Shown here: positions 24,025 through 40,500 of the stretch, one piece after another
How positions within the stretch are numbered: the stretch's first letter is position 1
Layout: each line of letters begins with the position of its first letter
From: an uncultured Planctomycetaceae bacterium
GTDB taxonomy: Bacteria > Planctomycetota > Planctomycetia > Planctomycetales > Planctomycetaceae
Length of the DNA stretch: 64,000 nucleotides
NCBI GenBank assembly: GCA_963815195.1
Contig: CAWFGE010000008.1
Location: forward strand, 1-64,000
Reading direction: 5' to 3'
Notes under the pieces: generated by a model
Seen by the model: only the letters and a program-made list of their open reading frames with translations
Databases searched by the model: none
What the model was told of the DNA's origin: nothing
Position numbers and translations under genes: made by a program

Positions 24025-24627
24025 ATGAGCGAGCCACTCCCCCAACTGGAAGGGCGGTTTTCGACGATCCTGGCCGATCCGCCTTGGCGGTTTCAAAACC
24101 GGACCGGCAAGGTTGCCCCCGAGCACCGCCGGCTCAGCCGATATCGCACGATGACGGTGGAGGAAATCTGCCATCTGCCAGTGTCGGCTCATGCCGAGAC
24201 TCCCGCCCACCTGTATTTGTGGGTCCCCAACGCCCTCCTGCCGGCGGGTTTGGAAGTGATGCAGGCTTGGGGCTTCACCTACAAGACGAACCTGGTGTGG
24301 TACAAAGTCCGCAAAGACGGCGGGCCGGACGGGCGGGGCGTCGGGTTTTATTTTCGGAACGTCACCGAACTCTTGCTCTTCGGCGTTCGCGGGCGAATGC
24401 GAACGCTCGACCCCGGCCGCCGACAGGTCAATCTGCTCTCCACCCGCAAACGGGAGCATTCCCGCAAGCCGCGGGAGATTTATTCCTTGATCGAAGATTG
24501 CAGCCCCGGCCCGTACCTGGAACTCTTCGCCCGAGAACGGGCCCAAGGCTGGACGTGCTGGGGCGATGAAGTGGAAACGTACCTCGACACCTGCCAGGTG
24601 GCCGCGGGTTATCGCGGCTCGGAGTAA
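24025..24627 (+). CDS. MT-A70 family adenine methyltransferase
   Basis: ILADPPW catalytic motif, LYLWV, WGFTYKT, EHSRKP, YLELFAR. Confidence 0.92.
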   Translation: MSEPLPQLEGRFSTILADPPWRFQNRTGKVAPEHRRLSRYRTMTVEEICHLPVSAHAETPAHLYLWVPNALLPAGLEVMQAWGFTYKTNLVWYKVRKDGGPDGRGVGFYFRNVTELLLFGVRGRMRTLDPGRRQVNLLSTRKREHSRKPREIYSLIEDCSPGPYLELFARERAQGWTCWGDEVETYLDTCQVAAGYRGSE

Positions 24628-24777
24628 AGAAGTCGGTTCGGAAGGTGGTGAAAAGGTTCTATTTCAGGCATGATAAAGACATATCTCAACGGCCGGGATC
24701 TCCGGCCCGGCACGTCAAAGGTCGCCGCGGGGCGATTTATCTAACTTTCCATTCTCATCGAATAAAGGTCACACGGA

Positions 24778-25011
24778 ATGTGCCCCATGGATCCTGCCTT
24801 CATGAGTCCGCCGCCGAAAGACTGGACGCCTCAACCGGGCGAGCGGGTTCGCCTGCTCTTTGGCGGAGAAATCCATGAGGTGGTGATTACGCAGTTGCTG
24901 GACGGGCCGGGTGGATCGGGATATGTTGTTGCCGGGGACGAGTTGCTGCTGCCCGTGGCGTGCGGCCGCGAGGCGATCCGGCCCCTCTCCAACGGCCGGA
25001 AGACGGAGTAG
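24778..25011 (+). CDS. Small hypothetical protein
   Basis: 77-aa ORF with plausible composition; no motif recognised. Confidence 0.4.
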   Translation: MCPMDPAFMSPPPKDWTPQPGERVRLLFGGEIHEVVITQLLDGPGGSGYVVAGDELLLPVACGREAIRPLSNGRKTE

Positions 25012-25235
25012 CCGGGTGCCGATTTTATGGATCGGAACGGTTTTAGCACACGGATTTCGCCGCGAAGCCGGGAAAGATCCGTTGAACGAATGCGGGTCTT
25101 AGCCTAAACTATTGGCATCTAAGATGTTTTGTGCATCGCCCGCGACCGGGAGTCAAAACTTTCGAGAAAATCTAAACACAGACCGGCCCCGTGTCGTAAT
25201 AAGGGAATAAGCAAAACATTGCTTCCACCAATCCC

Positions 25236-25590
25236 GGGGGCGATTGGATTCGACTGGTTCACGGAGATTGAGGTGGCGTGTCGTGGTTGATCAGCCGGCC
25301 ACGTAAAAAGCTGATCAAAAATCATTTGCCGAAAAGCAATATGCACTAGTTGCGTAGAAATACGCAGCTCCCGGTCGCGGAATCCCCGCCTGAGGAGTCC
25401 AAAAACCGGCCGCAAAATCAGGCTGGCCCGGGGTCAAGAACCGCTACGCCCCAGGTAAGACTCGTGGTGGTTATGTCGCCGGCTGGCCTTGTTTGTTGAG
25501 CCGAAGGCGACGAGATCAATCGACAAACTACACACGTAGAAGCCAAAATCAAAGGTTCACAGGACGCGGGTTCAATTCCCGCCGCCTCCA
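25236..25590 (+). ncRNA. ssrA: tmRNA; tag (A)AEKQYALVA at 25328-25357
   Basis: 5' GGGGGCGATTGGATTCGAC; T-arm GCGGGTTCAATTCCCGC; acceptor GGGGGCG/CGCCTCC with G3:U pair; tag ends YALVA-stop. Confidence 0.95.
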
Positions 25591-25594
25591 CTCC

Positions 25595-25634
25595 AATAGC
25601 CACTTGCGTTTTCGGACGCAAGTGGCTATTTTTT
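25595..25634 (+). terminator. Intrinsic terminator after ssrA
   Basis: 15-bp perfect stem aatagccacttgcgt / acgcaagtggctatt followed by a T tract. Confidence 0.85.
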
Positions 25635-25825
25635 GGCACTTCTGAATCGAATCTTGCCACAGAAAGCGACCGAAAACCGGGCCGATTTCGTCGGTTGTCC
25701 CATAAAGCCGAGCGTTTTTGTCCCATAGAACAGCCTGGATTGTCCCATTGCGCCATGGAATGGCCCTTTTATGGGACACGGCTTCCAACTCGCATTTTGT
25801 GGCGCATCCAAGGATGGTGAGTGCC

Positions 25826-27643
25826 ATGTCAACACGAAGCAAGTCTCGACGGACGCCTCTGAGCCAAGACAAGGCGACGGGGCGGTATTGCGCCAAGCTG
25901 GGAAGAAAGGTCACGAAGAACGGGAAGGTGGACGGCCACAAGTTCCGCTTTACAACCAGCGAGCGTGAATCGGAACGTCGCAAACAGCGAATTCAGGAAC
26001 TTTGGGATTACGCCGTAGAGAAACTCGGCGACTCCGAGTGGAACGAGCTTACCCTGCATATCGCCAAAGCGTTCGAGCGAGGCGAGGCAAGCGTTCGAGT
26101 TCCGATGAACATGATTACATGCTCATCGGAAGAGCCCCATTTGGCCCATCGGTTCGACTACGTGACGACCCTTGAGAAGTGGCGCAACATTTTTCCCTTC
26201 GTCCATTTCGTGCCCGAAGACGAGGAAGCCTACGAATTGGGTTCGCAGGAAGTCACATCCATTTCGGAGGGCCTCATGGAAGAGGTGCGATTCTTCGCCC
26301 AAGCCTCGAATGGACATGATCCCACCGAAGCGACGGTTGGAGAGGCGTTGGACGCCTATGAGAACGAGCACATCCGAGTCCGAATGCTGGTTGATCCCGA
26401 TCCAGAAGAAGGTCTCGCTGAGAAGCGTCTGAGCGACACTGCCCAGAAATACCTTGCGGCACTTGAGCGAATTCGGTGCTTCAACGGCCATCAACTGAAC
26501 TGGCCGCTATCGAAGCTGACCTACGACGGCTGCGATGCCATGATCGAGGTCTGGACGCAGAGACCGACTCGAAAGGACGGCACGGGACCGCTCGCTGTCA
26601 AGACGTGTCGTGAACACGACAAGCGAATCAAGGAGTTCATGCGCTGGCTCTCGAAGTCAGACCGTTTCGACTGGAAGAAGCCGATCGACTTCGACGAGTT
26701 GAAGTTGGCGATTCGAAAGTCGAACAAGGACAAGTCGGCACCTGTAACGGTACAGTCCCAGCAGGTCCGCACCTACACGGTCGAACAACTCAAGACGCTC
26801 AATGAGTTCGCCACTCCATTCGAGCGGTTCTTGTTGCTCTGCGGCTTGAACCTTGGTTTCAAGCGAATGGAATGCGCCACGCTGCGAGTGGGCGAGATTA
26901 CGCTGCGTCAGAAGCACCCTTATTCGCAGTACATTGCATTCGACTTCACCGAGAACGACTCGTTTGTGCGGCGAATCAGGACGAAAACCGAGGTGTATGG
27001 AGAATGGTTGCTTTGGCCCCTGACCGTTCAAGGCATGGAGTGGGTGCTTGATCGACGACGCAAGCAAACGCACATCCAACGAACCGATGGAACAACGCTG
27101 GGTATTCCATACCGTTCCACGTCCATCGCACTACTCAACGATGCTGGGCACTCCTTCACCAGGCCGACGAAGAGCGGGAATCCAAATCATCAACTGACCA
27201 ACATGTGGAACCGGCTTCTCGACCGGGTAGAGACTGCCGAGCCCAAGTTTCCACGGCTACCGCATGAGGCATTACGTGACACGGCTTCGAATTGGATACG
27301 TGAAGAGTTTTTGGGCGAGATCTCGGAGATCTTTCTTGGGCATGGATCTCCGTTGGGCAGCAAGAGCCTGATCGAATGCTACACGAACAAGCCGTTCGGA
27401 AACGTCTTCAGGGCTCTACAATGGCTACAAGAAAAGCTCAAACCGGTTTTCGACGCCACTCCTGACGATCCATTTCCGGTGGAGCGAAAGTTGGGAGGCG
27501 GTGGCCTCAACATTCGACAGATCAAACTAATCCGCCGCCTTTCCAAGGAAGGACTGCCGGTCGCCGAGATCGCCAAGAAAGTTGGGTGCTCCACAATGAG
27601 CGTTTATCGCCATCGTGAACACGAAACAGGGCAACCTAATTGA
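25826..27643 (+). CDS. Tyrosine recombinase/integrase-like protein with C-terminal HTH
   Basis: LGFKRMECATL (R), HEALRDT, LGH and downstream Y (ECYT); C-terminal GLPVAEIAKKVGCSTMSVYRH. Confidence 0.75.
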   Translation: MSTRSKSRRTPLSQDKATGRYCAKLGRKVTKNGKVDGHKFRFTTSERESERRKQRIQELWDYAVEKLGDSEWNELTLHIAKAFERGEASVRVPMNMITCSSEEPHLAHRFDYVTTLEKWRNIFPFVHFVPEDEEAYELGSQEVTSISEGLMEEVRFFAQASNGHDPTEATVGEALDAYENEHIRVRMLVDPDPEEGLAEKRLSDTAQKYLAALERIRCFNGHQLNWPLSKLTYDGCDAMIEVWTQRPTRKDGTGPLAVKTCREHDKRIKEFMRWLSKSDRFDWKKPIDFDELKLAIRKSNKDKSAPVTVQSQQVRTYTVEQLKTLNEFATPFERFLLLCGLNLGFKRMECATLRVGEITLRQKHPYSQYIAFDFTENDSFVRRIRTKTEVYGEWLLWPLTVQGMEWVLDRRRKQTHIQRTDGTTLGIPYRSTSIALLNDAGHSFTRPTKSGNPNHQLTNMWNRLLDRVETAEPKFPRLPHEALRDTASNWIREEFLGEISEIFLGHGSPLGSKSLIECYTNKPFGNVFRALQWLQEKLKPVFDATPDDPFPVERKLGGGGLNIRQIKLIRRLSKEGLPVAEIAKKVGCSTMSVYRHREHETGQPN

Positions 27644-27682
27644 ACTTCATTGCTCGATGGATAAGAGCCGACAGACCAATAT

Positions 27683-27712
27683 AGTTCTCCCCGCCGGGCG
27701 GCGGGGAGAACT
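27683..27712. terminator. GC-rich hairpin between convergent genes
   Basis: agttctccccgccg / cggcggggagaact. Confidence 0.6.
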
Positions 27713-27747
27713 TTGTCTGCCTGAGGAATCCCAAAATTGTTTCATGC

Positions 27748-27966
27748 TCACCTTTCCCGCCCCTCCAGGATTTCGCAGCCGGGGTAACGATGCATCAGCT
27801 TGGCAACAGCGGCGAACTGGTCCCTCGCCTCGATCAGGATGTTGCCAACGATCCCGCCGCTCTTCGTCTTGACCTTGAAGACGAACATCTTGTTGGCGGC
27901 GAGCGCAGTGGCATCGAAGCCGCATGCGACGAGCAGACCGAAGGCAAGAAATTGACGGCGTAACAT
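27748..27966 (-). CDS. Small putative exported protein
   Basis: MLRRQFL twin-arginine-like signal, hydrophobic core, ALA cleavage site, ~50-aa mature part. Confidence 0.55.
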   Translation of the reverse strand: MLRRQFLAFGLLVACGFDATALAANKMFVFKVKTKSGGIVGNILIEARDQFAAVAKLMHRYPGCEILEGRER

Positions 27967-28329
27967 GGCGGCACCTTGGGCGACGGAACAGTTCAACCGA
28001 GGTCATTCTTTGCCAGTTCTAACGACGAGGTCCAGCCTACTTCCGCCTGGTCGGCGATTCGCCCAACCTGGTCAGCAGCGGACAGAGCATGCGGAGGCCT
28101 GCCGGTCTGCCCCGTCGATCAATTGATCGGCCAGCTTCTTCGCTTGATCATATGGTCTCAATGAAATGAGGAATCGGGCGGCCTATTCGATTTACAAATC
28201 CATCTGGAGATCGGCGTGCAATTGGGACCCACTTCGGGGGCAGGATCGGCGCGGAAAATGGACCCACCGTAGAAAACTTCGCATGCTACAGGATTGGAGG
28301 AGTCTGGTCCTGTTTCAGCGGAGGAGAGG

Positions 28330-30333
28330 ATGCTCACGGTGGACGATTATGCACGGATTCGTCGGGCTTATCGCGATGGCATGAGCCTCAGGGAAATTGA
28401 GAGAACATTTCATCACTCGCGAAAAAAGATTCGTGAGGTCTTGCGAGGCGCGGGCGAGCCGACGCCTTACCCAAAACGGCGGCAGCAAGCGGCTCCCCAA
28501 TTGGGACGGTTTCACGATCGCATCCTGGAGATTCTCAAAGAGGATGAATCCGCGCCGCCCAAGCAGCGGCATACGCGGATGCGGATCTTCGAGCGGATCC
28601 GGGACGAAGACGGATACACGGGCGGCTATGATGCCGTGCGGCGGTTCGTGAACCGGCATCGGAAAAACCATGCTGAGACGTTCATCCCGTTGGATCATCG
28701 GCCCGGCCAGCGAATCGAAGCCGACTTTGGCGAGATTTCGGTGGACTTCCCCGACGGCCGCCGGAAGGTCAACGTGCTGATCCTGGTCTGGTCGTACTCC
28801 AACCTTCCGTTCGCGGTGGCGCTGCCGACGCAGCGAACCGAAGCGATCTTGGAGGGCATGACGCAGGCGTTTGATTTTTTCGGTTGTGTGCCGGAAGAAG
28901 TCTGGTGGGACAATCCGACGACCGTGGCCACCGAGTTATTGACCGGGCGTTCGCGGAAGATCAATCCGCGTTATCAAGCGCTCGCCAGTCATTACGTGTT
29001 CGAGCCGCTGTTCTGCATGCCTGCGCGGGGCAATGAAAAGCCGGTGGTGGAAAATCGCGTGAAGACGTTGGAGCGGAAATGGTCCACGCCGGTGCCTCGG
29101 GTGAAGGATATGGAAGAGTTCAATGCTTATCTTCGCGAGTGCTGTTTGAAGGAACACGATCGCTGCAGCAGCGGCCAGACGCAAACGATTGGGGAGCGCT
29201 TTGCGGAGGAAAAACAGCGATCCGCTCCGCTTCCGGGGCCGCGGTTTGATCCCTGCATCCGGCAATCGGCGAAGGTCAACAAGTATCAGTTCGCGCGGTT
29301 CGACAACGTGAACTACAGCGTGCCTCGCCACGCCGCGTTTCAAACGGTGACGGTCAAAGGCTATGTGGATCGCGTCGAGATTGTGTTGAACGAAACCGTC
29401 ATCGCCGTCCATAAACGGAGCTATCAGGCGGGCGAGGATGTGCTGGATCCTTTGCACTATTTGACCACATTAACGCGTCGCCCGGCGGCTTTGGATCATG
29501 CGAACGTGTATCGCGATTGGAAGCTGCCCGCCGTGTTCGGCGAACTCCGCGAGCGTTTGGAAAGGCGGCACGGTCCCCACGCGGGCGTGCGGCAATTCGT
29601 GCGGGTGCTGCAGTTGCTGGCCGAGCATCCGCTCTCGCGCGTGCAGGCGGCGATCGAGCAACTTCGCGGCCCCGAAGGAGCCGATGCCGATCGCATCATT
29701 CGCCGCGTGGAAGCCTCCGCCCTCCGCCTGTCGGAAACATCGTCCGAGGGCATTTCCACTCCGATCGAGTGCGAACACCCCGGCGTGTTGTCGGTTCAAG
29801 TTCCCTGTCCGAGCTTGAGCCATTTTGACCAGTTCCTGTCCTCCTTCCAAGGAGATTCCGATTATGTCCCCGAACCCGAAACACGATGCCAACCAGATGC
29901 TCCTCAAGGCCAACCTCAAGCAACTCCGGCTGCCGACAATCCTGGCCGAGTACGAGAAGTTGGCCCGCGAAGCGAGTGCCTCGAACCAGACCTTCGAGCA
30001 GTACCTGCTCCGGTTGACCGAACTGGAGGTCGCGGCCCGGCAGACCAATGCCTTGAACAGCCGGATCCGCAATGCGAACTTTCCGGTGGAGAAGGGACTG
30101 GAGGATTACGACTTCCAAGCGGTGCCCGGCCTCCACAAACAAACGATTTTGGAGTTGGCCCGCGGGGAGTGGATTGCCCAGCATTTCAATGTGTGTTTTC
30201 TCGGCCAACCGGGGACGGGAAAGGTCCGACCATCACAAGACACCTCTGGTCACTCAGTTATCGCGCGGTGAGATCACCGTCATCGATCCGGCCCATCCGC
30301 TTTATGGCCGAACATTTGATTTGTTCGGCTTAG
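28330..30333 (+). CDS. istA: IS21 transposase IstA; homologous part ends ~29870, frame reads on to 30333
   Basis: N-terminal HTH, EADFG, WWDN, GNEKPVVE (DDE), FDNVNYSVP. Confidence 0.9.
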   Translation: MLTVDDYARIRRAYRDGMSLREIERTFHHSRKKIREVLRGAGEPTPYPKRRQQAAPQLGRFHDRILEILKEDESAPPKQRHTRMRIFERIRDEDGYTGGYDAVRRFVNRHRKNHAETFIPLDHRPGQRIEADFGEISVDFPDGRRKVNVLILVWSYSNLPFAVALPTQRTEAILEGMTQAFDFFGCVPEEVWWDNPTTVATELLTGRSRKINPRYQALASHYVFEPLFCMPARGNEKPVVENRVKTLERKWSTPVPRVKDMEEFNAYLRECCLKEHDRCSSGQTQTIGERFAEEKQRSAPLPGPRFDPCIRQSAKVNKYQFARFDNVNYSVPRHAAFQTVTVKGYVDRVEIVLNETVIAVHKRSYQAGEDVLDPLHYLTTLTRRPAALDHANVYRDWKLPAVFGELRERLERRHGPHAGVRQFVRVLQLLAEHPLSRVQAAIEQLRGPEGADADRIIRRVEASALRLSETSSEGISTPIECEHPGVLSVQVPCPSLSHFDQFLSSFQGDSDYVPEPETRCQPDAPQGQPQATPAADNPGRVREVGPRSECLEPDLRAVPAPVDRTGGRGPADQCLEQPDPQCELSGGEGTGGLRLPSGARPPQTNDFGVGPRGVDCPAFQCVFSRPTGDGKGPTITRHLWSLSYRAVRSPSSIRPIRFMAEHLICSA

Positions 30334-30623
30334 CCCGCCTGCCAGGTTATCGTCAGTATTATCAAGTCGAGATTTTTCCTGACGAGATGACCTACATCGA
30401 CGTCAGCAGCACGAACCTTTCCACCGCTCCTCCCCAAAAAACTTCCTGTCTGACCCTGGACGCGCTCCAGGATTTGGTGACTACCTTTCGGGATATTCTT
30501 TCTCGGAGGGAAGCCGATGTCACCCATTGCCACGGACCAGGTGTGGAACCGTCTGACTCTTCCAGAGCAGCAGCGGATCATCCAGCAAATCGTCGTCATT
30601 CTAACGGAGGAACTGGAGCATGA
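30240..30623 (+). CDS. Small accessory protein of the recombinase element (DUF5372/Y4bD-like); start uncertain
   Basis: ITVIDPAHPLYGRTF motif; stop overlaps the recombinase ATG (ATGA 30620-30623). Confidence 0.5.
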   Translation, partial: TPLVTQLSRGEITVIDPAHPLYGRTFDLFGLARLPGYRQYYQVEIFPDEMTYIDVSSTNLSTAPPQKTSCLTLDALQDLVTTFRDILSRREADVTHCHGPGVEPSDSSRAAADHPANRRHSNGGTGA

Positions 30624-32696
30624 ACGGATCGATGAAAGTCAGCACCAGCCATTTGAATCGCCGCGGGATCGTATATCTTCGTCAGAGCACGACGAAGCAG
30701 GTCGAGAAAAACCAAGAGAGTGCCCACAACCAGCGAGCCTTGAAAACCCGGTTGTTGGAGTTGGGGTGGAAGCCGGAACAAGTCAGCATCCTGGAGGATG
30801 ATCAAGGGCAATCGGCCACGCAAACGGCGGGACGCGGGGCCTTTCAACAGATGGTCGCCGACGTCGGCTTGGGTAAGGTCGGCATCATTCTGGGCTATGA
30901 AGTTTCACGGCTTTCCCGCAACGATGTGGATTGGCATCGACTGTTGGAATTGTGTGCGATCTTTGACACACTCATCGGTGATGTGGATGGGTTGTATCAT
31001 CCACGGGATTTCAACGACAGGCTCCTCTTAGGCTTGAAGGGCACGATGTCTTCGGCAGAACTCCATAGCCTCCGATTGCGATTGGACGCGGGTCGATTGT
31101 CGAAGGCCGCGCGGGGCGAGTTGGTGCAAAACTTGCCGACGGGCTTGGTCCGCAATCTGGACAAGGCGGTAATGCTCGATCCCGATCTGAGCATTCAAAA
31201 GCGATTGCATTTGGTGTTCGACAAGTTCGTGGAGTTGGGCACGATTCAAAAAGTCTTGACGTTCCTGGCCAAGAAAAATTTGAAGATTCCCCGGCGCCAA
31301 GTTTCGGGCCTTTATGCGGGCGAAGTGTTTTGGAGAGAAGCCACGGCCGCTTCGTTGGGCTCGATCCTGCATAACCCGGCTTATGCAGGCGCGTTTGCTC
31401 ATGGGCGTCGGCAAGTCAATCCCACGCTACGAATTCCCGGTCGTCCTGCCACGGGTCGCACGCGCCGGCCCCAAGCGGAATGGTCGGTCTTAATTCCCGG
31501 CATCTACCCGGCCTATATCAGTTGGGAGCAGTACGAAGACAACCAACGCCGAATCGCTCAAAACAACCTCCGCATCCAACAACGACTCGCCGCCAAGCAA
31601 GCCATCCGCAACGGCTGCGCGTTGTTAACGGGCTTATTGCGCTGCGGAAAATGCGGTCGAACGATGGGAGTGAATTACAAGGAGAACCGCTTTCAATACT
31701 CATGCAATTCTGGCTATCGGCATTACGCCCAACGATCCTGCCAGTACTTGGGCGGCAACAAGATCGACGAGGCGGTGACGGAAGCTTTCTTTGAAGTGCT
31801 GCGGCCTGCCGAGATCGATGTGTTGGAGAAACTCTCCGCCGAAAGGGCTCGCACGCATGCGGACGTGGTTCGGCATTTGGAGCAAGACGTCGGGCGACTT
31901 GCAATACGCCGCCCATCGGGCCGAGCAACAATACGACTGTGTCGATCCCAAGAACCGTTTGATTGCGGCCAGTCTGGAAGAGAAATGGGAATCGGCTTTG
32001 TTGGCGCAAAAGCAAGCCGAAGAAAACCTGGCGGATGCCCGCCGAGAAATTCCCCAACCGATCCGCGTACCAAAGTCCTTGCGAGACGCCTTCGCGGATG
32101 TCGGGCGGCAGCTTCCCGAACTCTGGCCCGAGTTGTCTTGGGAGGCGAAGAAGTCGTTGTTGCGGACGATGATTACGGGAGTCAATCTTCACCGGCAATC
32201 GGATGGGCTGGTGCAAATTCGCATGGTCTGGGCCGGCGGTTCGGTGACCGAAACGTCGGCTCTCCTACGGCGTTTTTCAATGAAACACACGGACTTGGAA
32301 GAGCACATCGTGGAACGCATCCGGCAAGAAACCAGCGAAGGCCGGTCGAGTGAAATGATCGCGGCGGATCTCAATCGCGAAGGCCATCATCCCTGTCGTG
32401 GCGAACAATTCACCTCGCAAATCGTGAACAAGTTAAGACATCGCTACCGGATCAAAAGCCCGCGTGCAAAGAACCTGCCCCATGCCTGGACCGCCGCGGA
32501 AATGGCTCAGGAAATCGGGCGCAACATATCCTGGATGTATCATAAAATTGAGCAAAGACAGATCGTGGTTTCTGTCGATCCAATTTATCGGTGCTATCTG
32601 TTTCCCAAAACTGAGGAGGTTAAAGACGCCATGCTAAAACTCAAAAATCACGAAACCGAGCAAATCACTATCCCAAGGGGGCACAACAATGGCTGA
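30620..32696 (+). CDS. Large serine recombinase with one frameshift at ~31900
   Basis: VYLRQST catalytic Ser, DDQGQS, EVSRLSR, ILHNPAYAG, CGKCG zinc ribbon; C-terminal part in ORF 31791-32696. Confidence 0.9.
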
Positions 32697-33257
32697 GTCA
32701 AAACTCATATCAGCATTGGATTGGGCCTGGCCGCGTGCCGAGCGGGTTATAAGACCAAGTTCTTCACCGCCGCGGCTTTGGTGAATCGCCTGGAAGAAGC
32801 TCAGAAACATTACACCTTGGAGCGGTTGTTGAACCAACTCGACAAGCTCGATTTGTTGATCGTGGATGAACTGGGTTACTTGTCGTTCAACCGGTCGGGA
32901 GCAGAGTTGTTGTTCCAGGTCTTCGCGGATCGCTACGAACGCAAGAGCCTGCTGATCACGAGCAACCTGGCCTTTAGCGATTGGGGGCAAATCTTCCAAG
33001 GCGAACGCATGACCGCGGCATTACTGGACCGCATCACGCACCATTGCCACATCTTCGAGATGAACGGCGAAAGCTACCGCTTCAAACAGTCGATGAAAGA
33101 CAAAAAAGCGTCCGAAAACAAGAAGCCGAAAACCCGCTAAGTCGGCTCCGACGACGCCCGTCTTTCCTTCCCAACCTGCCCCATTCCACATCATTCCCCA
33201 CCCCAGGTGGGTCCCATTTCCGCGCCGAAGTGGGTCCCAATTGCACGCCGATCTCCA

Positions 33258-34563
33258 TCCCCGACCATTGCCGCCCATTCCGAGAACGGGTGTCGGGCCT
33301 CATGATCTAGTGGAGAACCGGCATCCTTCCATCGTGCCACCATCCCCCGCAGTTCTGCGGCAATGTGTTCACGGTTTTGAGGCAGAAACTCCAGCTTGGG
33401 ATTCCCAATCGGCGACGTTCTCTCTGAGACGTGCCCCACAGGATCAAGATGGATGGGTAGGCTGCGGTTGAGGATGTCCTCGCTCACAGAACCGAAGTTG
33501 GTTGAGATTGCCAGAACGATGTCGTTCCGGCGTCGAGTGGCCGGGCCAGTGCCGGTCGAGAACAGGAATGGGTGAGGGTCGGTGGCAAACCGCTCGATGA
33601 AGGCCGAAGCGATGGTATTGTCACGCCGGTCGAGACGTGCGTTCTCGATCACCAGAACCCCGGCGTCAGAGTTGTGATTGAGTGCCCCAACGAAGCTCCG
33701 TTCGAGCGCCCAGTTGGTACCCTGATAGCTGATCGAGCATTGCTCGGTCTCGCCCGAGGCGAATGCGATCACGGTGTCTTTTCCAGCATGGCTCTTCGAT
33801 GCCGTGGCGACGATGACCGGCTTTCCTCCCGGCCAGTGGTTGCGGAACAGGACCGTCAGTGCCGCTGCGAACGTATTGGCTCGGTCTGCCTGTGTCTCGA
33901 AGTCCATTACGTCGAGGAAGGCATTGATTCGATCCATCGAGTCGTAGACCTGCGGAGGATCGCCAACGAACAGGTATCGCTGGTCCGGGCCACCATCGTT
34001 GTAGCCCGGCTCTGTCAGTCGAAAGTCCGGCAGGTAGCGTGCCACCCTGCTGATCTGATCGACGACATCGAACTGCGACAGGAAAGCATCTGTCTTCAGC
34101 ATGGCGTTCATGTGCGCTGCTGAGAGCTTGCTGCCTTTGGGTTTGCCGTCGAGGTAGATGGTCAAAGCGACTCGATCCACAATCACCGGCGCAAGGTCAG
34201 CCGCCGTCGTGATTGACTTGGTTGATCCATCGGGACGCACGTGAAGCAATCCGCCGTCGTGACCCGAACGGCAGAAGAGATCACCGAACTTGCAAAGCGA
34301 TGCTCCAAGCTTGCGATAATTCTTGGCTGCCGGATCACCCTCATCCCAAGACAGTTCAGGGATTTTCGGAGGCTGTTCTCTCTATTGGTAACCCGGCGCA
34401 CCCGGCACAGCAGGCACGACAGATGGCTTTGTTGGCACTGAAAGTCGCTGGAAGGGCATGGAGCATTTGGCCCGCTACGCGGGCCAAATGCGGCCCTCAC
34501 TGCGACCTCCTGCTGCCACTCACAGCCGTCAGATATGCCGCCAACAACGTCATGGTTGCTCAT
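33258..34563 (-). pseudogene. Phage/plasmid primase-associated P-loop protein, 3'-truncated by IS21
   Basis: KSHAGKDT P-loop-like, ISTN, RSLPIHL; protein-like sequence stops at the IS end; frame break near 34385. Confidence 0.5.
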
Positions 34564-34846
34564 CGGTTTCTTCCTCGCCTGTGATGGCGTCGTCGCCGTC
34601 CTTCACCGAAATGTCGAATGACAGCGAGTCCCGCTTTTCAATGAAGGCGAGGTACTCCGTCAGAAAATCGACGATGTTGTCTGGCTCCACCTCGCATTGA
34701 AGTGCGGAGTAGAACCCATCGCTGTTCCTTACTTTCCCGTTCACTCGAAACTTCGAAGCCGATGCCAGATGCTCGACGTTGGCAACGAAACGAAGCCAGT
34801 CATGGACCGCCTCGGCAGTTCGCAATTTGCATTGAATGTGTTTCAT
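34550..34846 (-). CDS. Hypothetical protein
   Basis: 98-aa ORF overlapping both neighbours in operon fashion. Confidence 0.6.
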   Translation of the reverse strand: MKHIQCKLRTAEAVHDWLRFVANVEHLASASKFRVNGKVRNSDGFYSALQCEVEPDNIVDFLTEYLAFIEKRDSLSFDISVKDGDDAITGEEETDEQP

Positions 34847-35727
34847 GTGAGGCCCCCCAGCGCTTCAATTCTGTCGATCACCTGTTGAGGCACATCCTGC
34901 GTCTCTCCGTCAATGTCGGTCAGCGTCATTACGGCTGTGCCGAAAACGTGAAGTCCAACCATCGCCGATGCTCGCCGATTCAGTGGAAGTCCCTCAATTC
35001 GTCCGCTGTCGTGAACGTAGAATCCAAGTCCCTGCCCCTTTCTGAGAGAGATGCGTTCGATGAGGCCGCCGACCGCCTTCTGGTAGTCATCCAGCCCAGA
35101 CATCAATCGCACTTCTGCGCCACCATTCGTGTCAAAGACGATTGTTTTCACTGCCCTTTCTTTCCTCACCATTCGTTCTGGGCAATGCGGATTCGTCCCA
35201 AACTCTGAGAGCGGAGTTCCGCCCGGTACGGACTGGAAGATGAACATTTCCGCTGGGGTCTCTTTCCAGACGAGGAACTGTCCCTTCCGCTGGCCGCATT
35301 CAGGGCATGTGAGAGTTCGAGCGGAATGGTCCTCCGGCCTATGAGTGCAAACGACGAAGTGCAGGGAGCATCTCATGCACTTCGCCTTCACCTTCACGAA
35401 CGTGGACTGGTCTTCGTCGATCTCGTGCCACTCCTTGACGACCACTCGAAGATCGTCACGCTCCTTTTCCAGCTTCGCTTTGCCCTTCTCCAGTTCAGCG
35501 ATCTGGTCATGAAGCCGAGTCAGCGGCTTGAGACTCTCGATCTGCCCATCTTTGGAAGCGACTGTTCGCTCCAACTCGTCGATGCGTCTGGACAGGCTTG
35601 CCTTCTCACGTCGAAGCTCGCCCGAAAACCGCTCGACCTGCGACAGGAGCAAAAGTTCGTCCTTTCCCCCTTGGCAAGCTTCACGAAGGTCTGCCATTGC
35701 CTGCTTGAATTGCGTCTTGTCTGCCAT
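34843..35727 (-). CDS. Coiled-coil + Zn-ribbon + DUF3846-like protein, possibly two fused ORFs
   Basis: CMRC..CPEC; C-terminal YQKAVGGLIE..G...GLPLNRRAS..FG pattern; GGGGAG RBS. Confidence 0.6.
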   Translation of the reverse strand: MADKTQFKQAMADLREACQGGKDELLLLSQVERFSGELRREKASLSRRIDELERTVASKDGQIESLKPLTRLHDQIAELEKGKAKLEKERDDLRVVVKEWHEIDEDQSTFVKVKAKCMRCSLHFVVCTHRPEDHSARTLTCPECGQRKGQFLVWKETPAEMFIFQSVPGGTPLSEFGTNPHCPERMVRKERAVKTIVFDTNGGAEVRLMSGLDDYQKAVGGLIERISLRKGQGLGFYVHDSGRIEGLPLNRRASAMVGLHVFGTAVMTLTDIDGETQDVPQQVIDRIEALGGLT

Positions 35728-35932
35728 TGTGTTTCTCCCCTTGGCTTGGAATGAGTTGGAGCAGCGACGTGCTTGCTCCTCACGAGTCAAAGGGCGAACT
35801 GGCAATTCGGTTGACGAATTGGGAATTCGTCTGTTTTCGACGGCTGAATTCGGGCGACGAATTCGGCAATTCGCCCTCTTCTAAATGAGGGCCGTTATGA
35901 GTGATTGACCACAGACAGCAGGAGGAAGAACG

Positions 35933-36364
35933 ATGAATCCAGTAATTGATTATTTCGCATGTTTGCTTGACCACTATGCGCAAACCGGAGAATGCCCACC
36001 TAACGACGTGGGAACAATCGGTGCTGCTATTGAGTTTGAGAATTGGGAGTCACCGCATCTTGCTTTTCTTTGCAACTGTATGCGGGATCGCTACTCGGAT
36101 GAAAAACTGCATGAAGCACGGGAATTTGTTCTGCCTCGAACAGCAGACGACACCGTTGATTGGGAAGCCATTGAGAAAGAAGTGGAGGCGGCATCACTGC
36201 CTGACGCCCACATGTCGATGTGCCTCAGCCTAAGAGCCGACAACTTGGGCGACCTGATCGAACGACTTCGTGAACTTCGAGAGGAAACTCGTCTATGTGA
36301 CGAGGCATTGACCCTGCTGATCGAAAAGTATGGACCAGATGCTTTCACAGAGAGAATCGTTTGA
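35933..36364 (+). CDS. Hypothetical acidic protein
   Basis: AGGAGG RBS; 143-aa ORF divergent from the previous operon. Confidence 0.6.
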   Translation: MNPVIDYFACLLDHYAQTGECPPNDVGTIGAAIEFENWESPHLAFLCNCMRDRYSDEKLHEAREFVLPRTADDTVDWEAIEKEVEAASLPDAHMSMCLSLRADNLGDLIERLRELREETRLCDEALTLLIEKYGPDAFTERIV

Positions 36365-36395
36365 CATCCAAAACATGCCGACGAGGAGCGAGGCA

Positions 36396-37541
36396 TCACG
36401 CCGCCATCACCAGCCGCACCACATCGCCATCCCACTCGGCGACGGAGGCGAGGAAAAGTTCAACTGGGCTTCTGAACTCTCGACTTTTTTCAGAAACAAG
36501 CCCTTCGGCGAGAACTTCGAATGGCTTTCTCATTGTGGGGACAAGAGTTACGTCGTCGAGCGAGCAGTTCAAAAACACGATTTCGAGGATACGGCGCTTT
36601 GCGGCGTAGTCGGCGGTAAGCCATTGGCTACGAAGGGTTTGCGAAAGTTCAAAAACTTTCGAGGCCAACTCGGCCGTTTCGTCGTGCGAGCGATCCAACA
36701 CATCCAATTGCAGCTTGATTGATGCCAGCCGGTCTCGTAGCTCTGTGTGCTTGCGGGCGAACGTCTCCTGATCAATGTCTTCTGCCAGACGCATGTTGAG
36801 CAGCCGGTCCTGCTGTTGGACGAGCAGCGTTTCCTGACGCTGTAGCTCGCCGCGTTGTGCAAAGGACTCGGCCTGGGCGTCCCGCGTCTGCGAGGCAAGC
36901 ACGAGGCGGAACCAGTCCCGCACGTCCTCGTTTTCGGCCTTCATCTTGTCGAAGATCGCCAGCACCTGCTGTTCGAGGTCGGCTTCACGCACGCGGATGC
37001 GAGGGTGATCCTTGCGGTTGTAATAGGTGCAGCGGTAGTACGTGTAGTACCGCTCCCCGTTCTTGCTCTTCTTCGTGATCGTCTCACCGGTAATCGGGTG
37101 CCCGCAGTGGCCGCACTGGATGAGTTGGCTGGCGTAGGTGTGCGCCTGAGACTGATAGACATGCCCGCCAAGCAGGGCCTGCACCCGGTTCCAGGTCGCC
37201 CGGTCCACCAGCGGCTCATGTTTGCCCGGATACCACTCGCCCTTGTGCGAAATCTCGCCGATATAGGCCCGATCCTTGAGGATGTTATGAACGGAGCTTC
37301 GCGGAAACGTCGGCTGTGACTTCCGCCAGATACGTCCCTCTCCGTTGATCCGCTCGACTACGCCGTCAATCGTCAGGTTTTCGTAGGCGTAGAGTTGAAA
37401 GATGCGTTTGACGTTGGCGGCCTGTTCCGCGTCCGTTTCAATGATGCCCCGGCCGTCCTTACGGATGTTGCGATAGCCGTAGGGAGCCAAGCCAATCAAC
37501 CAACCCTCGCGGACGCGACGGGAAAGTCCTTCGCGAACGTC
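36396..37541 (-). pseudogene. Large serine recombinase lacking its catalytic N-terminus
   Basis: DVREGLSRRVREGWLIGLAPYGY, ILKDRAYIG, CGHCG zinc ribbon, coiled coil; homology ends at 37541. Confidence 0.85.
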
Positions 37542-40500
37542 ATGACCGGCAGGCGCATGGCCACCCTCCTTGAACTACGTGACCGCGCACGCCGCGTCCT
37601 GCAATCGCAGAACGAGGGCTGGCCCGATGAGAACCGTGACCAGGCCAGACGCGAATTGAACCGGACGTATGACCGCTTCGTCGCCGCCTACGGCCCGATC
37701 AACAAGACTACCTTCGGCGAAACCAAAGATGGCAGCATCATCCGCCGCATGCCCAACCTGGTGAAATTCAGGGAAGACCCGGACGCCATGCTCGTCATGT
37801 CGCTGGAAGACTATGACGAGGTGACCGGCAAGGCGGCCAAAAGCCGCCATCATGGAACGCGACGTGGTGGGCCGGCACGCCCCCATCACCCAGGTCCGCA
37901 GCGCCGAGGAAGGCTTGCTGGTGTCACTCAACCAGCATGGCTGCGTCTATCCCGACTATATCGCCACGCTCTACGGCAAACCGGAAGAGCAGGTCATCGA
38001 GGAACTCGGCGATCTGATCTTCAACGACCCACAAACCGGCAAGTGGGAAACGGCCGATGCCTACCTGTCCGGCAATGTCCGCGACAAACTCGCAGCCGCC
38101 AGGCGGGCCGGGCCGGAATTAGCCCGCAATGTCAGGAGTCTGGAGGCCGTCCAGCCCGAGGACGTGCTGCCGGGCGACATCGACGCCAATCTCGGCGCTC
38201 CGTGGATACCGGCCAGCGACATCCAGGCATTCGCCGCCGAACTGTTCAAGGTCAGCCCATCGTCGGTGCCGGTGTCACACCTCAAGAAAGATGCCGTCTG
38301 GAGTCTGGAGTCTGGTTCCCGATTACGCCGCCAAGGTCTCGGTCGCCGCCACTTCCGACTTCGGCACGCAGCGGGCCAACGGCAACTGGCTGCTCGAACT
38401 GGCGCTGAACATGAAGTCGCCGACCATCTACGACACCATCGACCACGGCGACCGCGAGGAGCGCGTCGTCAACCAGGAAGAGACGATGGCCGCCCGCGAG
38501 AAACAGAAGCTCATCAAGGAGCGGTTCCGCGCCTGGGTCTTTTCCGATCCCGACCGCACCGAGCGGTTGGTTCGCATCTATAACGACACCTACAACAATC
38601 TGCGGCCGCGCCTGTTCGACGGCTCGCATCTCGATTTCCCCGGCATGAACGATGCCCTGACGCTCCGCCCGCATCAGAAGGATGCCGTCTGGCGGGGCAT
38701 GAGTTCGCGGCAACACATTGCTCGCCCATGTCGTCGGGGCCGGCAAGACGTTCACGATGGCCGCCACCGGCATGAAGATGAAGCAGGCCGGCCTCGTCAA
38801 AAAACCGATGTACGTCGTCCCCAATCACCTGCTGGAGCAGTTCGCCCGCGAATTCATGCAGCTCTACCCGAACGCCCGGCTGCTGGTCGCCTCCAAGGAA
38901 GACCTGTCCCGCGACCGCCGCAAGTTCCTGACCGCCAAGATCGCCAGCGGCGACTGGGACGGCATCATCGTGACGCATTCCTCGTTCGAGCGGATCGGCA
39001 TGTCGAACGACTACCAGGAACGCTTCCTGCGCGAGCAGATCGAGGAATATGACCAACTGCTGATCGAACATGCCGCCGAACGCGGTTCAAACCGCAATGT
39101 CATCAAGACCATCGAGAAACAAAAGGCCGCCCGCGAGGAGAAACTCAAAAACCTGCTTGCCAGCGACAAGAAGGACAACGGCCTTGTCTTCGACGAACTC
39201 GGCGTCGATCACGTCTTCATCGACGAAGCCCATTACTTCAAGAACCTGGAGACGCCGACCAAGATGGATCGCGTCGCCGGCATCCAGACCGGCGGATCGG
39301 AACGCGCCTTCGACGTTTACATGAAGGCCCGCTATCTTGAGCGACCTGCATCCCGGCCACGGCGTGACGTTTGCCACCGGCACGCCGATCTCCAACACGA
39401 TGGTCGAGATGTACACGATGCAGCGCTTCCTCGACCCCGAGGGCCTCAAGAGCCGGGGCATCGAACATTTCGACGCCTGGGCCGCCACCTTCGGCGAAGT
39501 CGTGGACACGATGGAGATTTCTCCCGACGGCGCGGGCCTGCGTCCACGTTCCCGCTTCGCGAAATTCACCAACCTGCCGGAACTCCAGCAGATGTTCCGG
39601 GCGTTTTCCGACGTGCAGACCGCCGAGATGCTCAACCTGCCCTGCCCGAAACTCCAGGGCGGCAAGCCGATCATCGTCGCCTCGCCGATGTCGGATGACC
39701 AGGAGGCGCTGCAACAGGAACTGGTGGAACGCTACGAACGCTTGCGCTCCCAGAAGATCGACCCGCGCGTCGATAATGCTCTGGCGATTACCACCGACGG
39801 CCGCAAGCTGGCCACCGATGCCCGCATGCTGGACGCCGCCGCCGCCGACTTCCCCGAATCGAAGGTCAATAAGCTGGTCGATAACGTCCACGCCATCTGG
39901 GAGCGGACAAAACCGACGCGCGGTACGCAGATGATCTTCGCCGACATGGGCGTGCAACCCGACCACGTGGGGCTATTCGCCCTACCAGGAGATCATCCGC
40001 AAGCTCGTCGCCCAGGGCATCCCGCGTGACCAGATCGCCAGTATCGGCGAGGCCGAATCCGACGCCAAGAAACAGGCACTCTTCGAAAAGGTTCGCCAGG
40101 GATCGGTGCGCGTGCTGATCGGCAGCACCCAGAAGATGGGCACCGGCACCAACGTCCAGAAACGCCTGGTCGCCCTGCATCACCTCGATGCACCCTGGAA
40201 ACCGGCTGAAGTCGAGCAACGCGACGGCCGCATCCTGCGCCAGGGCAATCAGAACAAGGAAGTGGCCATTTACCGCTACGTCACCGAAGGTTCCTTCGAT
40301 GCCTATATGTGGCAAGCACTGGAAACCAAGGCCCGGTTCATCGGGCAGGTCATGACCGGCGACAACGCCTCCCGCCGCGCCGAGGACATCGGCGGTCAGG
40401 AACTCTCCTACGCCGAGGTCAAGGCCATCGCCTCCGGCAATCCGGCCGTGCTCACGCTCGCCGAGGCCGACGCTGAATTGCAACGCCTGGCACTCCTCAA

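Follow-up and report, generated by a model that had tools for sequence, protein, structure and literature searches.

The DNA considered here is a stretch of 64,000 nt (the window) from an uncultured Planctomycetaceae bacterium, whose source assembly of 8.87 Mb is called G000; C-numbers denote contigs of that assembly and L-numbers denote loci at which homologues were found. Within the window lies an insertion sequence (IS) of the IS21 type whose istB gene is divided by a second, smaller mobile element encoding a large serine recombinase, and it is this inserted element, probably a minimal selfish element that parasitises IS21 through the Walker A codons of istB, that forms the subject of the present article. 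All features are on the forward strand unless stated otherwise. The IS21 carries both istA and istB between perfect 33-nt terminal inverted repeats (left, 28205–28237; right, 33225–33257 on the reverse strand; 100% identical). The istA transposase frame (28330–30333), which matches NF033546 at 258 bits against a cut-off of 160, runs past the 5′ part of istB and into the inserted element. The 5′ part of istB (29864–30220) aligns with positions 2–106 of PF01695 and ends with the codon for the final glycine of Walker A, and the 3′ part (32702–33140) aligns with positions 112–236; the two halves likewise cover NF038214 at 1–103 and 111–232. Read-through from istB into the element ends at 30271 after 135 aa, and removal of the element in silico gives an open IstB of 265 aa that starts at the ATG at 29864 and has its Walker A motif intact. 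Uninterrupted natural homologues of this istB are present in the relatives L122 and L123.

The inserted element occupies positions 30221–32699 (2479 bp) and is present in nine copies in G000 that share 99.5–100% identity. Its left attachment site (attL) has the core AA at 30221–30222, with which the lysine codon of Walker A begins, and comparison of the junctions places the core of attR, again AA, at 32700–32701. The original prediction had described a 2479-bp insertion in this lysine codon, with junctions that share AA alone and a 265-aa IstB on removal, and this description is confirmed, as is its statement that both attachment sites can be read from the sequence. ORF1, ORF2, and the further copies in the genome do not figure in that prediction. 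The 4-bp symmetry that it pointed out at the predicted circle junction is present and belongs to a longer imperfect inverted repeat. In five elements with both ends, the two arms of the predicted attP agree, element by element, at 12–21 of the 30 positions compared; symmetry at 13 positions, the outermost being position 27, is shared by four or all five of these elements, and the conserved inner bases are the positions fixed by the Walker A codons for Gly, Lys, Thr/Ser, and His. A 2-bp core at the crossover, the lack of a target duplication, and an attP in the form of an imperfect inverted repeat are found together. The element contains ORF1, ORF2 (ORF, open reading frame), and the integrase gene only, with no relaxase.

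The large serine recombinase, or integrase (30620–32696), is 691 aa long when intact and is frameshifted near 31897 in the window. Matches above cut-off to PF00239, PF07508, and PF13408 together with the structural model provide the catalytic domain, recombinase domain, zinc ribbon, and coiled coil of this class, the last at residues 397–475 (helices 397–440 and 446–475; predicted local distance difference test, pLDDT, 73). Residues S23, C342, C345, C362, and C374 are invariant in 30 sequences, and the closest structures found by Foldseek are serine integrases (E 2e-13). About 140 extra residues at the C-terminus are HTH_17/MerR-like according to a protein atlas, in which these families are assigned to a minority of the members of the top cluster. 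DUF4368 is not among the Pfam matches of the integrase at E up to 1, and NF041201 (XisF-type) reaches 69.6 bits, far under its cut-off of 375, with the frameshifted product of the window as the query.

The copies in the source genome comprise seven that are full, one that reaches a contig end, and one that is truncated after 681 bp. The same codon is occupied at all nine left junctions and at all seven readable right junctions, in IS21 copies of types A, B, and C, and the IstB proteins of the other types are 30–41% identical to that of type A where measured. A six-frame count of the motif GxxGxGK[T/S] gives 252 in G000, and no copy of the element lies outside istB; the reading of the element as a parasite of istB is strengthened because the same codon is used at all junctions, in three IS21 types, and among 252 such motifs. 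The number of copies is a minimum, since three contigs stop at a type-B arm right behind the core. Empty istB genes in G000 are of types B, C, D (two), and E (two). Support for the junctions also comes from read data, which here are the assembled contigs of four sequencing runs (X-numbered), from which rare forms drop out and in which, where reads are short, repeats are collapsed; a search for read data listed 20 DNA runs and none of RNA. A contig of run X1, which may be the source sample, crosses the left junction (29692–30272), one of run X2 crosses the right junction (32007–33068), and short-read contigs carry type-B and type-C arms at identical junction positions. An intact 691-aa integrase is encoded by three copies (C15, C18, and C12), and five of the eight near-full copies have insertions or deletions (indels) in the assembly. 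The frameshift near 31897 reflects an extra base in the window copy and in C7:41275, and two more copies have a deletion a few bases away; this extra base is missing from contigs of runs X1, X2, and X4 and is likely a sequencing error.

Variation among the copies follows the IS arms in which they sit. At position 30283 a single-nucleotide polymorphism (SNP), T, is found in all four copies with a type-A left arm and is absent from the copy in a variant arm, A′, and at 30242 C is found in two of three copies with a type-B left arm. The type-B right arm, together with a second recombinase element, is repeated on four contigs at 99.9–100% identity. Arms of different IS types are joined in three copies (C12, C15, and C16), and the order on C12 (type-B left arm, element, type-A right arm, type-B right end) fits a deletion between two copies of the element. 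The second recombinase element (G000:C21:191-2792, L007) is about 2.6 kb long, encodes an integrase 34% identical to that of the window, and lies in type-B istB just past Walker B, so that this gene is interrupted twice; it is also found on C14, C19, and C18, with an 84% variant on C16, and its circle would likewise restore ORF1. A diverged and AT-richer relic of the element’s right end, 81% identical across 98 nt and with its junction degraded, is present at G000:C6:1454-1553, after an IS3-like element (family assigned by eye) and before a type-A right arm, and the element copy at C8:399180 is itself interrupted by another element.

Close relatives show the same arrangement. At each of the seven loci whose integrase exceeds 50% identity, namely L011–L014 and L017 (five genomes, labelled Chloroflexota and Planctomycetota) and L037 and L038 (metagenome contigs), an istB half ends or resumes at the same AA core, and six of the seven form one clade with the G000 integrase (support 1.0) in a tree built from 69 of the 143 sequences, L017 not among them. 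The original prediction had proposed a survey of homologues for insertion at the istB Walker A codons, and had named unrelated sites among them as the finding that would speak against it: above 50% identity all seven sit at that codon, whereas the sites of distant clades do differ, with the qualification that they lie in genes of other mobile elements. Its broader claim of a minimal serine-integrase element that is aimed at these codons and carried within the IS is supported by all copies and by the close relatives. A metagenome search gave 601 candidates, of which 598 were confirmed and 80 kept. No new member above 50% identity was found among 401 genomes of the same phylum, 17 of which match (G000 included), or among 401 of the phylum of genome G454, 20 of which match (G454 included); the new matches in both sets are about 41% identical or less. 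A type-A istB in another genome of the same genus (L121/L133, on G401:C20) holds a different, inverted element with 33% identity, whose junction lies about 10 nt upstream and still within Walker A.

ORF1 is represented in the integrated element by its 3′ part (30222–30623; 133 codons), which is DUF5372-like and is modelled as an SH3/KOW-type barrel with a helix; its conserved part has no upstream start codon within the element. At the opposite end stands a stranded ribosome-binding site with an ATG (32675–32691, the ATG at 32689) that comes into the reading frame of ORF1 only on the circle: across its junction this ATG, 11 nt before the core, is joined to ORF1 to give 137 codons. ORF1 is therefore whole on the excised circle only, and as attP lies inside it, istB is not the only gene that integration divides: ORF1 is broken too, and both would be made whole again on excision. 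An in-frame start across the circle junction is found in 11 of the 13 elements with both ends readable (eight positives computed, three read from printed sequence): those of the window, L011, L037, L038, L012 (with CTG), L075, L144, L142, and L088 (these last four in IS66 tnpB), L063 (inverted in istB), and the second element of G000. The right-end ATG is not a by-product of integrase coding, since L039, L043, and L049 keep it at an unchanged distance though their integrase stop lies far upstream. In six close elements the ORF1 frame is kept, with a proportion of nonsynonymous differences (pN) of 0.26 against 0.69 for synonymous ones (pS), and the other two frames are not; the ORF1 stop overlaps the integrase ATG in four of the six, the window included.

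A search of 1.84 billion proteins returned 402 matches to ORF1, of which the best 150 were used. PF17342 (DUF5372) matches 6 of 106 aligned relatives (best E 6e-7) and gives no direct match to the window protein itself; neither ORF1 nor ORF2 had a significant match when scanned directly against Pfam and NCBIfam, Foldseek found no structure for ORF1 at E up to 0.001, and the top ORF1 clusters in the atlas carry DUF5372 at 0.94, with low recognition value. Ahead of ORF1, in the +1 frame, 14 of the 19 top matches that could be scored have a Walker A signature (control, 1 of 129 offsets), as do 2 of 6 middle matches (control, 0 of 21) and 14 of 48 distant matches (control, 6 of 241); 77 further matches were not scorable. 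Two other ways of reading across the junctions are ruled out: a −1 frameshift at attL by which istB translation would pass into ORF1, because ORF1 lies in the +1 frame, and use of the stranded attR ATG as a restart for IstB, which yields an out-of-frame peptide of 31 aa.

ORF2 (30517–30636) has a conserved core of about 38 aa in a frame that is open to 30801, possesses its own ribosome-binding site, and is the sole accessory gene with a start codon while the element is integrated. The profile of its core matches 62 of 166 loci, and W10 and L13 are invariant in 39 sequences. Folded with residues 325–552 of the integrase, it gives a predicted complex with a score of 0.76, compared with 0.00 for the best of three controls; the mark set for such predictions is reached by 116 of 157 solved pairs and by 2 of 215 mismatched pairs. 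Agreement between runs covers at least 76% of contacts, and the partner pLDDT is at least 76. The predicted interface comprises integrase residues 389–405, 481–517, and 534–545, at the junction of the zinc domain and the coiled coil, where one published study places, also by prediction, verified recombination directionality factors (RDFs) (PMC12286644). The modelling supports ORF2 as a candidate RDF that would bind the integrase hinge, and excision is plausible because ORF2 is predicted at the hinge where directionality factors bind.

These features can be assembled into a proposed life cycle. The integrase alone would join attP of the circle to istB, after which the integrated element would be read from the istAB operon to give ORF2 and integrase and no ORF1, and ORF2, as directionality factor, would permit excision. 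On the circle, translation of ORF1 would cross the ribosome-binding site of ORF2 and stop on the integrase ATG, which may favour re-integration. The element would spread by integrating on its own into whichever istB it accepts, and also by riding on IS21 copies, helped by IstB in trans or by transient excision, and its copies would serve as portable homology through which istB halves are shuffled and DNA is deleted. One part of the original prediction fares badly here, namely that the element blocks its IS in cis until excised. Such a block is doubtful because occupied IS21 copies appear to have multiplied as units: they are near-identical at several loci, their SNPs track the IS arm, and no empty type A is seen. 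This points to movement of the occupied IS by complementation in trans or by transient excision, not to a lasting block.

We regard it as probable that the element is a minimal selfish integrative element parasitising IS21 via the Walker A codon of istB, and a number of observations weigh against this view or parts of it. The original prediction looked to empty istB and to the circle junction as signs of excision, and neither turned up: the G000 assembly has neither an empty type-A istB nor a circle junction, and no circle junction or empty site is present in the contigs of the four runs, from which rare forms are lost. A promoter and terminator scan of the element gave results at chance level. 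Two of the 13 elements, L165 and the one nested in L017, do not directly rebuild ORF1, and L012 and L014 have CTG where others have ATG. The ORF1 model is confident (pLDDT 89), and a wide fold search with it returned only generic SH3/KOW folds (Z up to 6.3). As to ORF2, PMC12286644 also reports partners predicted falsely, including one placed at this very hinge junction, and the score of the modelled complex may be due in part to likeness to solved integrase–RDF structures. The shuffled arms, for their part, could be assembly chimeras. In addition, 5 of the 19 top ORF1 matches have no Walker A signature, and empty host genes resemble occupied sites. A DNA profile of attB, built from four left and nine right arms of genomes other than G000, ranks the Walker A codons top among 1,033,710 AA sites of G000 and fails as a discriminator between istB and other Walker A sites, several empty host ATPase genes scoring 17–22 and occupied sites 8–27. 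We take the high-scoring host motifs to be FtsH-like, ComM-like, and Clp-like. These empty genes score as high as occupied istB, and the restriction to istB may come from a finer reading of the DNA, from a protein that assists, or from the loss of insertions made elsewhere.

The last of these possibilities leads to a rival account in which the integrase accepts many Walker A runs, insertions in host ATPases are purged, and istB is simply the safe site where insertions survive. It would fit both the profile scores and the top ORF1 matches that lack the signature, yet no copy is seen in any Walker A motif of G000 other than that of istB, and many of these other motifs are probably dispensable; moreover, all seven close relatives are in istB, and the profile draws on few arms; we consider this account rather unlikely, and it is compatible with the rest of the parasitic reading. 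A one-way element that never excises precisely, and whose copies derive from IS21 transposition and homologous recombination only, would explain why no empty site or circle is found in G000 or in the contigs, why five of the eight near-full copies carry indels, and why copies track IS arms. It would nevertheless require repeated formation of attP, given three IS21 types in one genome and a different istB in each other genome, and it sits poorly with purifying selection on an ORF1 that is whole on the circle only and with the presence of an RDF candidate, so that we hold it to be improbable. No more credit can be given to a domesticated switch by which the host or the IS turns IS21 on through excision, in the manner of regulated gene integrity. 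Excision does restore full IstB, every type-A copy is occupied, an RDF candidate is present, and strand transfer requires IstB according to a published account (PMC11208146); the element, however, has multiple copies, is shared among IS types and phyla, and has itself been interrupted (C8:399180 and L017), occupied ISs appear to have spread anyway, empty types B to E coexist with them, and no regulatory input is seen. That the assembler placed a repeat into istB is a notion that the many assembly indels and the three contigs breaking at the right junction might invite, and it is almost certainly wrong, for contigs of X1 and X2 cross the junctions, type-B and type-C arms meet the element at the same positions, and seven other loci share the structure.

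The parasite of istB has a wide kinship. Distant relatives, 32–45% identical, are common and occur in 431 PLSDB plasmid records, mostly rhizobial, in which every match is below 60% (best 40%); a plasmid search with the 5′ half of istB returned istB genes only, and viral contigs contribute three distant loci. The plasmid elements, made up of a ‘recombinase family protein’ with DUF5372, are 32–40% identical and share the layout of ORF1, ORF2, and integrase; they are annotated as recombinase or hypothetical proteins only, and those examined sit in IS66 tnpB or related recombinase genes, not in istB. Sequence past the integrase stop is available at 76 non-redundant loci, of which 69 have candidate frames and 29 a Pfam match, the neighbour being a mobile-element enzyme in 23 (rve, 7; group II intron-type reverse transcriptase, RT, 5; other DDE, 5; IS66 TnpB, 2; IS66 transposase, 1; IstB, 2; resolvase, 1), a cargo helix-turn-helix (HTH) gene in 3, and another gene in 3; for most distant loci one side of the element was checked. 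Precise splits could be rebuilt in IS66 tnpB (L075 and L144), in istB just past Walker B (the second G000 element), in istB with the element inverted (L063 and L165), and in a related integrase gene (L017). The last case, L017:1473-3842, is a 36%-identical element that has inserted, in inverted orientation, at residue 140 of the integrase encoded by a Walker A element, a parasite of a parasite; on the circle, translation of the frame upstream of it may continue into ORF1. L058, L062, L067, L074, and L083 (and, by eye, L066 and L089) form a branch that adjoins, in inverted orientation, RT genes of the group II intron type that are cut at about profile position 60–70, and in L043, L044, and L049 an additional HTH_23/HTH_32 gene lies between the integrase and the right end. 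Tentatively, and with somewhat less than even confidence, the element can be read as belonging to a large family of serine-integrase hyperparasites of minimal size, in which it makes up a single branch. Every branch would be fixed on a codon-constrained catalytic motif of another mobile element’s enzyme (the Walker A or Walker B side of IstB, IstA/rve, IS66 TnpB and TnpC, DDE transposases, group II intron RT, and the family’s own recombinases), would switch direction at the level of translation, the integrated form producing an RDF and the circle alone restoring a split gene, and would act as a reversible brake on transposition.

As regards the IS21 itself, the istA frame has no stop ahead of istB and overlaps it by about 150 codons, as it also does in the empty relatives L122 and L123 and in L131. 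No target-site duplication beyond 2 nt was found for the IS21 of the window, and none for the C7 copy; the flanks in the window are not two halves of one gene. Its right end cuts a gene on the reverse strand (33258–34249) that has an intact homologue, 91% identical, in G285, and a blastn search with the G285 locus found its 3′ part to be absent from G000. The surroundings (24025–38580) look mobile, with an MT-A70 methyltransferase gene (24025–24627), a gene for a 641-aa protein with a C-terminal HTH (25718–27643), a DUF3846 protein gene (34843–35805), and a fragment of a second serine recombinase that is unrelated to that of the element (36396–37499). After the 641-aa gene stands a 25-nt inverted repeat with a 2-nt loop (27672–27723), possibly a terminator or the end of an element.

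In its domain order, its 2-bp core, and the lack of target duplication, the element resembles the large serine integrases that work with RDFs (phiC31, Bxb1, SPbeta, and A118/LI), and with these it also shares a symmetric attP of about 55 bp and a small partner that is predicted at the hinge between zinc domain and coiled coil. Unlike these, it has no phage, totals 2.5 kb, is multicopy, targets a gene of an insertion sequence, has some 140 extra C-terminal residues, and has its attP within an accessory gene. Tn4451/Tn4453 share the serine recombinase (TnpX), the 2-bp core, and a circular intermediate, and expression in Tn4451-type elements is said, to go by the title of a paper by Lyras and Rood from 2000, to depend on the circle junction. 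The TnpX junction forms a promoter, whereas here the junction provides a ribosome-binding site and start codon to a separate gene. Hyperparasites of mobile DNA include IS4321/IS5075 in the ends of Tn21, group II introns in ISs, and RIT elements, which are alike in lifestyle but differ in chemistry, a serine integrase here reading the codon-constrained positions of a motif. Serine-integrase integrative mobilizable elements (IMEs) in conserved genes of integrative and conjugative elements (ICEs), such as traG, have in common with it the site-specific disruption of another mobile element’s gene, travel inside the host element, and restoration of the host gene by excision only, as described in a review (PMC5704250); the present element differs in having neither relaxase nor cargo and in using an IS, not an ICE, as its host. 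That review attributes to TnpX a low target specificity and no need of an RDF, and states that no RDF had been proposed for serine-integrase IMEs (PMC5704250). The element is thus not an IME, because it has no relaxase, and not Tn4451-like, because it is target specific, with one codon position in all copies. DUF4368, which the window integrase does not have, occurs in 63% of the multi-targeting clade of large serine recombinases according to Durrant (2022). The terms ‘istB’, ‘IS21’, and ‘IS66’ are absent from the main text and supplement of that study, which would leave unnoticed any att sites given as sequence alone, and its Gene Ontology row for transposase targets (6/1069 vs. 2/908) is not significant. 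No description of the element or of its plasmid relatives was found in the literature within reach, which excludes most subscription papers, and a survey of integration sites beyond it could list such sites; nothing was found on ‘DUF5372’.

The recombination chemistry is already known; what appear to be new are the target, the family-wide hold on motifs of mobile-element enzymes, the split gene, and the small RDF candidate. For tool development, the integrase, its attP, many natural attB variants, and the RDF candidate can all be read from sequence, and if the family of hyperparasites is real, it would offer many orthogonal and very small sets of integrase, att sites, and RDF. For annotation, a split istB, tnpB, or RT gene beside a ‘recombinase family protein’ may be a reversible insertion and not a pseudogene. 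The genomic context of DUF5372 gains a role that can be tested, beside a candidate RDF of 38 aa, and the supply of a start codon by attP would make expression depend on the state of the element in a way unlike known promoter swaps. For the biology of mobile DNA, the element would represent a layer of parasitism below the insertion sequences, one whose attachment site consists of the most constrained codons of a transposon ATPase.

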